Notes under the pieces: generated by a model
Told to the model about the DNA's origin: nothing
Database searches by the model: none
The model's input: the letters and a program-made list of their open reading frames with translations, nothing else
From: Balanoglossus misakiensis
Taxonomy: Eukaryota; Animalia; Hemichordata
Direction: 5' to 3'
DNA: 64,000 nucleotides
Assembly: GCA_040954595.2 (NCBI GenBank)
Contig: CM082576.2
Location: 11,845,129 to 11,909,128 of the forward strand
Program-made: the position numbers and the translations under genes
Part shown: positions 35,501-38,500 of the stretch, piece after piece
Layout: the number at the start of each line of letters is the position of its first letter
Numbering within the stretch: the first letter of the stretch is position 1

Positions 35501-38500
35501 TCAGTAGGTGACGCGAGATCAGCCACTATGATGGATATTCCGATCACATCAACGTTGTACTAATGTTTGACTACACTAACTGCCCTGGCTGCATCAACTG
35601 TACCACTCTCGGCATTTAGATGCGGTGGAAATCTCGAGCAGTTCTCGCTCAAGTCGGCCGCAATTAATTCAATTACAACAGTTCAGGGGGGCAAAAAGAC
35701 ACAGCAAAGTAATATATAAACGCTATTATCACACTGAAGAATTTCCAAATGTTGTCTTAATTACCTGCCAGAGTAGTCCAAATGATTGCTGTGATCAAAA
35801 TACTGCTCAGTTTGGGGATTATTTCCCACCCATTAATACATTGTATGACTGTAATCAAGTCAAAATACAGACTGTGTACTCGGTTTAGTCCAGACTATAA
35901 GGATAATTGAATCAAGATGTTTGCCTCGAATTAAATACTGCCTCTCCTATCACTATAGTCAATATGGTACTTATCCTGCAGACTGCACCTTCAGTGCACG
36001 TGAAAAATCTACAACAGTGTCAACAACCTGAAATAACCAAAACTCAATTTGACTCAAAATGTTTAATTTTCCTGGGTGGAGTGTGTTCCATTCCAGCAAT
36101 TATCGTAGGATGTTTCCTTGTACATGCTTTGGCGAATTTATTTCATTTTTAAAAGCTCACAAATAATGACAAAATATTCAAGTTTTAACTTAAAAGTGCA
36201 CTTTGTATCAGCTGGGCAAAAACTAGTCATATGTGTATTTAAGCAATAACCCCCGCCGCAGGCGGGTATACACGATTTGGGTACAATTCGAGACATATAG
36301 CACGAGCCGTCAGGCGAGTGCTATATGGAGCGAATTGTACCCAAATCGAGTGTATACCCGACTGAGGCGGGGGTTATTGCTATTATATTATATCAACAAC
36401 TGTTTTTGTGGCATATCAGTGTCACTTTCTTACCGAAACGGTGTCAGAAAGAGAAATTACGATCGTGAACCAACATGGCGACGACGAATGTAAACACGAG
36501 CGGCCGGGATCGAGCATTAAACATGAAGCAGACGACAAAAAGTGACAAGACGGGCATCGCGCGTGGCAAAGCGACAAATATATCCACAGAGCAGTTCCAA
36601 AATAAAACGTCCGTTAATTCAACATTATTTTTGTTTTATTTATTTGGTTTAAACACGCGCGACTGGTTTAACCGCACATTTTGCTGCCGAATGCTAGTTC
36701 AGGGGCCCGTTTTACCACTGCTAGCCATGGTAAAACAGTATTTTACCATGGCTGGATTCAGCTCTCGTCCAATCAGAATCGCGGACGGTAGCATGATATA
36801 ATATAAAGTTGAAATAGTTCATTCATCCGGAAAAACAAACCTGGGAGGTAGGGACGGTGTTCAGTGAGCAGAAATAACACAATAACCATGGCGACTGCGA
36901 TGAATTGGAAATTTGTTCTACTTTCATTGCAAGGCTTTGCAACTGCTGCGAAACTATTATGACAATATTCACCTGTCTTCTGACTGGATTAATATACTAT
37001 ATGGCAAGTATGTTTATAATTTCACTTTGCAAATTATTTTTCTGATATTTTAGCATTTGCAGTGCTTTTTTTAAAAAAGGTTCTGGATGTTGCTTTCTTA
37101 TCTATTATGACATCTGCATTTCTCTAAGATGGTAAAAATCATCAGCATATAGACTTGCTGGAAAACGGTTGGAAACACACACAGAAAAAAATCTAACAAC
37201 CTGGAATCATCAGCATTCAGTGAACTTTTGACATCATTTGCAAGCTGAATTATATATCAAACATCCAAAAGACAAGCAATCAACACAGGCTTATCATTTC
37301 ACTTCCAGCGTATCAGGTGAAATAGAGAATCCCTTCAGAGGAATTACTGGAATCCCATCGTGCACACTAAATAAATACACAGCTGGGGTCGCAGAGGTCG
37401 TGACCTGCATCAGCTGGTCATTGCGTATGTACAGTGGCAGCCACAAGTCAAGTACTGGACTCTTCCCTGCGTATTACGAGAAGATGATCATCATACACAA
37501 ACTGGATAGTCTGGCTCGATGTCAGCTCAACATCATAATGGGCTCTATTCAATCAGACACACGCAGCCATAATTCTATTAAAACGAGACTTGTAATTTGT
37601 CTAGATACAACCTGACTAAACACTGAGAGATAGAAGTTGGATCGAGTAATGCATCAACCCAGATTGACTGTCCATCAGTAATTGGTTGCAATCTAATCAA
37701 GCCCCTGCCAGGTATACTGGGGTACTCGCTCACCTCCACGCTCCAGGTTCAAACCACTACAGTATTTATTTTCCAAAGTATAAATTATTGACGTTGCATT
37801 CTTGAGATTGCGGCAAGGAAATTATTCATTTATTAATCCAAGTTTATGATAGCCTGGATATTAGTCAGCTCAGACATTAAAAGTGATCAGTTCTGAACCT
37901 AAACTATCACAAGTATTGCTTTCACTGGTTGCCCAGTGCTGTGTGTGAAAAAACACTGGAATTCTGTCGGGGGAATTTCCGGACATTTCAAACTGCTAAA
38001 GTGCTTTCATTGGTGCATTGAAGTTGAACATGACAATACAATAAGTGGTTGGCTGGTGTTATAATATGCGGATGCTATAGCAAAACTGATCTGAAATATT
38101 GTTGTTATTATGAAAACGAAATTCTACCACAAGACTTTCAATTTTCCAAAAGTTAGAGAGCTGTGGCAAGTCAACCACAGCATACATATACTACATGACG
38201 TAATTCAAACTATGACAAACTGAAGAGATTTGTCTTCATACATATAAAATACCCCTGGAGAACATTTTCAGCAGACAGATTCATCAAACGCTGACGGAAT
38301 CAGAATTCGTATGGAAATTGCACCACCTTTTATCACAGGACCACAATGAGAATCGACGAGAAAACCCATACAGCCCAGAAAAAAAGATGTTGGTTTAAAA
38401 TTAAATGCCGTCGGACTCGCATGCTGTCGTTCTCTCATTCATTCTTTGTCTGTTTTGTGAAATGCCTTTTAAACACTGCTTTTAGACGACGGTACGATTG

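Follow-up and report, generated by a model that had tools for sequence, protein, structure and literature searches.

Splint-bearing non-coding elements of Balanoglossus misakiensis as candidate CryptonA-type transposons recombined as folded single strands

Introduction

The movement of Cryptons has so far been proposed by analogy only, with a double-stranded circle as the intermediate. Their terminal direct repeats measure 4-6 bp in fungal and oomycete groups, whereas none has been reported in animal groups, and the CryptonA group is present in deuterostome invertebrates (PMC3212892). Non-autonomous CryptonA elements of medaka are 353 and 554 bp long (PMC3212892), and a series of further repeats, namely, Crypton-N1_SSa, CryptonA-N2_SSa and the human Eulor5A/B and Eulor6A-E, are filed in Repbase as non-autonomous Cryptons (PMC5753468). 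The 2011 paper on animal Cryptons gives them no terminal repeats and never uses the word 'hairpin' (PMC3212892), the 2018 paper, which notes a likeness 'especially at the termini', mentions no hairpin, palindrome or secondary structure (PMC5753468), and hairpin, circular, single-stranded or palindrome wording does not occur in the accessible part of the 2026 Glomhopper paper (PMC13465315). According to the available portion of another study, a mouse 'pre-miRNA' hairpin lies wholly in Eulor5A (PMC3495686). This agrees with the presence of a hairpin in the Eulor5 family.

DIRS retroelements, which integrate by means of a tyrosine recombinase, contain an internal complementary region (ICR) that pairs with both termini, and have a trinucleotide junction; integron attC and CTXphi attP sites, in turn, rely on short triplet homology and on extrahelical bases. 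Both attC, the substrate of IntI, and attP are folded single strands on which a tyrosine recombinase performs one exchange that is resolved by replication, a route that the part of PMC3458562 at hand presents as established for integrons. Tyrosine recombinases also circularise one specific strand of the SE elements SE-6945 and SE-6283, which are bacterial, multi-gene elements with a 6-bp footprint and, in the available text, no described splint (PMC9345347). Hairpins near the ends, lack of terminal inverted repeats (TIRs) and single-stranded intermediates are found as well in HUH elements (IS200/IS605, Replitrons, Helentrons/DINE-1), with short direct repeats in Replitrons; however, their end motifs and targets differ from those reported here, and no splint pairing with both ends is described for them in the consulted parts of PMC10288648 and PMC4067079.

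Here we analyse three elements, A, B and C, from the hemichordate B. misakiensis. In contrast with the animal Cryptons of the 2011 paper, they have a TAA direct repeat, an internal splint and G·A pairs; and whereas attC is one self-contained hairpin per cassette, their candidate recombination site would be made of two distant ends and an internal splint, in a eukaryote. Like DIRS they have an internal region complementary to both termini, but they have neither inverted terminal repeats (ITRs) nor reverse transcriptase, and a self-complementary stem of 70 bp stands between the splint and the near end.

Results

Two families of elements with a common layout

The three elements lie in a window of 64,000 nucleotides of contig CM082576.2, and sequence inspection and folding recovered them at the places and with the layout of the original prediction, including the absence of end-to-end TIRs. 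Element A occupies 5304-5615 (+ strand, 312 nt including its TAA repeats at 5304-5306 and 5613-5615), element B 5622-5934 (- strand, 313 nt including both TAA repeats) and element C 36240-36806 (+ strand, 567 nt including both TAA repeats); the latter is non-coding, high-copy and present or absent between haplotypes. Each begins with TAA-GCAATAA, proceeds into a terminal stem with about 70 bp, closing on TTATTGCT, and continues from the 3' arm of this stem into the splint, a segment complementary to the far end; the 3' part consists of a short hairpin with a 5-nt loop, the motif CCAATCA and a tail that ends in ATAATA-TAA.

In C, the ends and an empty allele (see below) place the left and right TAA at 36240-36242 and 36804-36806. 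The long terminal stem-loop spans 36242-36381 and the splint 36374-36395, of which 36374-36381 pairs with the left end and 36383-36395 with the right terminus (36794-36806); the short hairpin (36723-36753) has a stem of 13 bp and a loop of 5 nt, and CCAATCA, which by its letters resembles a CCAAT box, lies at 36769-36775. The corresponding features of A are the stem-loop at 5306-5447, the splint at 5440-5470 (5440-5447 to the left end, 5448-5470 to 5594-5616), the short hairpin at 5521-5551, with a 5-nt loop and G·T wobbles on the + strand, and CCAATCA at 5568-5574. Those of B, all on the - strand, are the stem-loop at 5790-5932, the splint at 5767-5797, whose second half (5767-5789) faces the right end at 5621-5643, the short hairpin at 5687-5715 and CCAATCA at 5663-5669.

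These had been taken for three copies of one family, a view that has to be given up in favour of two families. While A and B show 9 differences over 313 columns, C can be aligned with them over its first ~155 nt only, at about 74% identity, and the bodies are unlike. Self-comparison revealed no fourth copy in the 64-kb window, and lone AGCAATAA/TTATTGCT sites at 12352, 29229, 30239, 41905 and 54780 were discarded as not being element copies. The ends and copy number of A and B come from this three-way sequence comparison, as the read contigs described below were mapped on C.

A and B stand tail-to-tail with 6 nt between them (window 5604-5640), and before insertion their site would have offered one TAA target on either strand. 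This arrangement may have come about by local hopping, by a preference for the AT-rich end of the element itself or as an inverted reaction product. Two further observations concern short motifs: a 10-mer of the A/B long stem (5323-5332) is repeated in an arm of the short hairpin of C (36723-36732), and a GGTA core is found again in the long and the short hairpin of either family and may be a shared protein-binding motif.

Element C is an abundant mobile unit

Three public runs from one sample of one study were used, X1 and X2, which contain the locus, and X3, which was added. Their contigs were aligned to window positions 35200-37800 for depth and ends, and to 36020-36258 for the empty allele. 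Summed contig depth in X1 reaches 3e4-1e5 over C against ~30-60 in the flanks, which is not a copy number but shows that the family of C is very abundant. Other copies part from the window sequence at two places, 36236 (27 contigs in X1) and 36806 (55, 45 and 4 contigs in X1, X2 and X3, respectively), where their loose ends cluster. In the 18 loose ends listed, with 492 more, the flanks beyond these borders are AT-rich and unlike each other, and none of the 18 falls at the border between hairpin and body (36381-36383).

An empty allele was present in a 255-nt contig of X1 (depth 24.5) and a 256-nt contig of X2 (depth 16.7), the filled allele being found in X1 as well (depth 30.2). The empty-allele contigs match the window without gaps up to 36240 and then read G followed by the right flank from 36806, so that the net insertion is 564 nt, namely, the element plus one TAA. 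As this allele lacks the whole of the 564 nt, hairpin and body of C are absent together. The original prediction had called for a comparison of empty sites in other haplotypes, and had named as its possible undoing that hairpin and body might be two unrelated miniature inverted-repeat elements (MITEs); for C, the second haplotype removes this objection, since both parts move jointly. The claim that there is no obvious target-site duplication needs amendment, as TAA stands at both ends in all three copies, and in C one of the two triplets belongs to the target according to the empty allele. This allele has TGA in place of TAA at the triplet, and close by it departs from the window in ~3-4% of positions, with four differences on the left side, two among those listed; given TGA at the triplet and the two left-side differences beyond those listed, the target sequence is incompletely fixed.

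The 15 joints listed, of 53 in the read contigs, are all skips, and several of these are internal deletions with both ends retained; no back-joint, whether circle or tandem junction, occurs among these 15.

The splint pairs with both ends into the TAA repeats

Pairing of the second half of the splint with the right end was borne out in all three copies. In C, 36383-36395 and 36794-36806 form 13 Watson-Crick pairs out of 13, and 21 of 23 positions are Watson-Crick pairs, with one G·T in addition, both in A (5448-5470 with 5594-5616) and in B (5767-5789 with 5621-5643). Among perfect runs that begin at the second half of the splint, the longest was compared with 500 shuffles; the 13-nt run of C was never reached (shuffle maximum 9) and the 9-nt run of B was reached twice, but the 6-nt run of A was reached in 102 shuffles, so A alone fails this metric, the reason being that the run stops at a T·T mismatch. 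Covariation between splint and termini, on which the original prediction was to be judged, amounts to two columns in a comparison of two families only: in one column both partners differ, C-G becoming T-A, and in the other G·T becomes A-T.

On the left, the pairing starts from the last A of the left TAA; on the right, it extends through TAA and one T of the flank in A, B and most other copies of C. Both flanks would therefore leave the duplex at one point. The predicted circle junction, TAATA-TAA-GCAAT, is 2 nt shorter than the splint, which would therefore have a 2-nt bulge. No clear inverted pair of 11-13-bp binding arms could be seen at this predicted junction.

One-sided G·A mismatches and conserved pairing in the long stem

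Aligned with each other, the left and right arms of the long stem gave an uneven set of mismatches. All six internal mismatched oppositions of B are G·A or A·G, arranged in three tandems, as are all seven of C and six of the seven of A, which also has three tandems and whose remaining opposition is T·G; on the opposite strand the same mismatches would read T·C. With A and B counted once and two of twelve mismatch types scored, six G·A in a row have a uniform chance of ~2 in 100,000. Since B and C have no internal mismatches other than G·A on one strand, mostly in tandem, their letters point to a strand-specific fold of the stems. The window copy of C lacks one GA after 36273 that is present in 30 contigs of X1 and 20 of X2, and hence the family of C has the third tandem too. 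In two of the three tandems CGAG faces CGAG, and for this arrangement the accessible part of an NMR study of stable DNA hairpins reports sheared G·A pairs (PMC10085684).

For the comparison of B and C stems we relied on a pair-aware alignment, which over 76 columns gave 47 with an identical pair, 9 in which both partners of the pair have changed, 4 with G·A in both stems and 16 others; a plain alignment recovers only 16 shared pair columns, of which 1 is changed on both sides. It is therefore supported, at the level of these alignments, that pairing in stem and splint has been kept while the sequence changed between the two families, with the caveat that homogenisation of inverted repeats can also give compensated stem changes. 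Apparent paired variants within the C family (36272 A>G with 36351 T>C) were left uncounted, as the arms are superimposable and the contigs unphased.

Folding energies of the long stems range from -63 to -71 kcal/mol, the top strand being slightly more stable in A, B and C, by 1.7-4.8 kcal/mol for the long stem. The G·T wobbles of the short hairpins favour the top strand in A and B (-7.4 vs -3.0 and -5.2 vs -1.9 kcal/mol, respectively), whereas the short hairpin of C is symmetric between strands. RNA parameters favour the same strand, so that the fold cannot tell DNA from RNA. An Rfam match of positions 36000-37100 to mir-4536 (27 bits, for a cut-off of 76 bits) was taken as that of a generic hairpin.

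Search for an enzyme partner

The 119 open reading frames scanned, out of 162 of at least 78 aa in the window, gave no Pfam match to recombinase, DUF3504, HUH, DDE or reverse transcriptase families, nor to any other class of transposase; the remaining 43 are short or overlap with frames from the HEATR5 region. A pattern that combines head motif and splint was used to scan contigs of viruses, metagenomes and prokaryotes. The viral contigs yielded 24 matches, none with the long stem and with folds of -5 to -20 kcal/mol, and 0 and 1 matches for other spacings of head and splint; the metagenomes yielded ten, all without the long stem, and the prokaryote genomes four, which is the chance level. The stem-top motif occurs by chance at no fewer than 121 loci in the viral contigs, and the 5 of 128 folded matches that fall below -40 kcal/mol were rejected, all being GC-rich and having none of the end motifs. 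The pattern matches in these three sets of contigs are chance matches only.

Other features of the window

Pfam identifies exons of a HEATR5A/B-family gene at 11565-26389 (- strand) and a TatD-like exon at 4446-4697 (+ strand), and gives no match for two open frames of the + strand, 58806-59657 (283 aa) and 63196-63999 (at least 268 aa). An imperfect palindrome of 81 nt lies among the HEATR5 exons (15716-15796). A repeat of ~95 nt has two copies, 79% alike, at 13682-13775 and 25384-25476, with inverted ends starting TTAACCC, and we take it to resemble a piggyBac-type MITE; another, starting TACTGTAAAAC, has two copies that are 74% alike (21014-21163 and 30214-30360), the second with an inverted end ~200 nt further on, and is likely a TA-targeting MITE. 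Closer to C, the second haplotype (X1 and X2; 261-nt contig) has an insertion of ~182 nt at 36128-36131, with a 4-nt overlap, 110 nt upstream of the element, and a different, very abundant short repeat covers 35233-35286 (depth ~13,000 in X1; 35 loose ends before 35233).

Discussion

We propose, by analogy and with the balance of our judgement standing about level, that A, B and C are non-autonomous elements of CryptonA type that would be recombined as folded single strands at a TAA triplet. The assignment to Cryptons is made because of a putative likeness to the Eulor5/6 and salmon Crypton repeats, in which the head motif, stem, splint, CCAATCA and tail are presumably the same as in A, B and C. 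If this match holds, the element type is probably catalogued already, as had been suspected from the start.

Several other traits of the elements agree with those of described Cryptons. TIRs and long direct repeats are absent, and the sizes of 312, 313 and 567 nt match those of the non-autonomous CryptonA elements of medaka. Like CryptonA-1N1_OL and CryptonA-1N2_OL (PMC3212892), and like Crypton-N1_SSa, CryptonA-N2_SSa and Eulor5/6, they are non-coding, of a few hundred bp and without end-to-end TIRs, and numerous, abundance referring to C only, by its excess of depth and dozens of distinct flanks. The 3-nt direct repeat, TAA, matches neither published statement on Crypton repeats exactly. In the Crypton, DUF3504 and Eulor literature, as far as titles and the first lines of abstracts go, neither the design of the ends nor a mechanism was found, and Repbase Reports or Dfam may describe them; no account of a folded-strand route, which is known in bacteria, came up for animal transposons of this kind in the literature searched.

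The route that we envisage would begin when the top strand becomes single-stranded, for example where a replication fork passes. Its folding would produce the long stem, the splint duplex and the short hairpin, and the two flanks would exit together at a single point. A tyrosine recombinase supplied in trans would find both ends juxtaposed by the splint, and a single strand exchange within the two TAA triplets would join right end to left end. The product would be a dumbbell circle, in the junction duplex of which the splint bulges by 2 nt. This junction duplex would then act as recombination site: one strand exchange would take place between it and an AT-rich TAA target, and the intermediate would be resolved by replication, which would leave TAA on both sides, as for integron attC cassettes. 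More generally, animal Cryptons may employ a tyrosine recombinase on a folded single strand, with a splint-assembled site that has a programmed 2-nt bulge, sheared G·A blocks that mark the strand and a match of only 3 nt, TAA, at the target; this we put forward tentatively, the scales tipping slightly against it. Of the interpretation first given to these elements, what stands is that they are non-autonomous mobile units without end-to-end TIRs, with conserved pairing and strand-specific mismatches, while their passage through folded single-stranded DNA with a tyrosine recombinase is what we infer from these features.

The closest competitor keeps the enzyme and changes the substrate: a textbook Crypton would be excised as a double-stranded circle at short direct repeats, and stem and splint would be protein-binding repeats or act in another step, such as conversion or copying of the circle. 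This is the proposed model for Cryptons (PMC3212892), a short direct repeat with one copy derived from the target agrees with it, and, in duplex DNA, end sequences present as an inverted copy could offer an accessory site for binding; yet it leaves unexplained why the G·A mismatches lie on one strand, why the splint abuts both ends in register and why pairing is kept despite sequence change, and 3 nt falls short both of the 4-6 bp that the repeats measure in fungal Cryptons and of the 6-8-bp spacer in classical sites (PMC3212892). We regard it as unlikely, though not strongly so. An HUH enzyme (Rep/Y1), of the kind found in IS200/IS605, Replitrons and Helentrons, would recognise the hairpins, cut 3' of TAA and paste a single-stranded circle 3' of another TAA, and HUH elements in general share hairpins, lack of TIRs, a bias for a single strand and AT-rich targets, to which Replitrons add short direct terminal repeats, of 6 nt in Replitron-1 as compared with 3 nt here (PMC10288648, in the part available). 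It is nevertheless a distinctly improbable source of these elements. As far as the accessible text of PMC4067079 defines them, A, B and C conform neither to Helitrons (5' TC, 3' CTRR, a hairpin that lies ~11 bp inside the 3' end, an A/T insertion site) nor to Helentrons/DINE-1 (subTIRs at both ends, a 3' stem-loop, a TT target without duplication): they have no 5' TC or 3' CTRR, no end-to-end subTIRs and a TAA repeat rather than a TT target, and the short hairpin of C ends 53 nt from the end of the element. In addition, the hosts named for Replitrons are plants, algae and protists (from the consulted portion of PMC10288648), and an HUH gene is missing from the 119 of 162 window frames scanned.

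The two remaining alternatives explain the splint or the TAA repeat, respectively. Were the elements DIRS-like non-autonomous retroelements, transcribed from the bottom strand into an RNA whose cDNA is the top strand, the splint would be the ICR; reading the bottom strand does put it near the 3' end, where it pairs with both termini like an ICR, and RNA parameters also favour the fold. However, the DIRS layout is one of ITRs plus ICR (PMC13465315, in its available part), and of these only the ICR-like splint is found, ITRs and split direct repeats being absent; internal deletion variants that keep both ends resemble derivatives of DNA transposons, and the same 119 of 162 frames of the window hold no reverse transcriptase, all of which leaves a DIRS-like origin quite doubtful. 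The last alternative turns to DDE transposases, with each element being a single odd MITE or else two MITEs side by side, the first of them palindromic. PIF/Harbinger elements make a 3-bp TAA/TTA duplication around end-to-end TIRs, the TAA repeat is formally a target-site duplication, and the body taken alone has inverted ends of 13-23 nt. But the outer ends have no TIR, so that only the TAA half of the PIF/Harbinger design is seen, the empty allele lacks hairpin and body jointly, none of the 18 loose ends listed (492 more) lies at the border between them, and the compound layout is common to two families that share no body; a DDE origin is accordingly very improbable.

Returning to the folded-strand Crypton reading, A, B and C have defined ends and a target triplet, and oligonucleotides of the predicted substrate can be ordered, which makes the question directly testable. 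If it is true, eukaryotes would have a DNA transposon that moves by single-strand recombination with a tyrosine recombinase, a counterpart of integron and CTXphi recombination, and its 3-nt target requirement might be of use for insertion tools. It would also provide a natural substrate for the enzyme ancestral to the ZMYM, KCTD1 and QRICH1 domains, account for the Eulor5/6 hairpins, which are ancient and conserved in vertebrate genomes, and give conserved Crypton-derived repeats a structural meaning.
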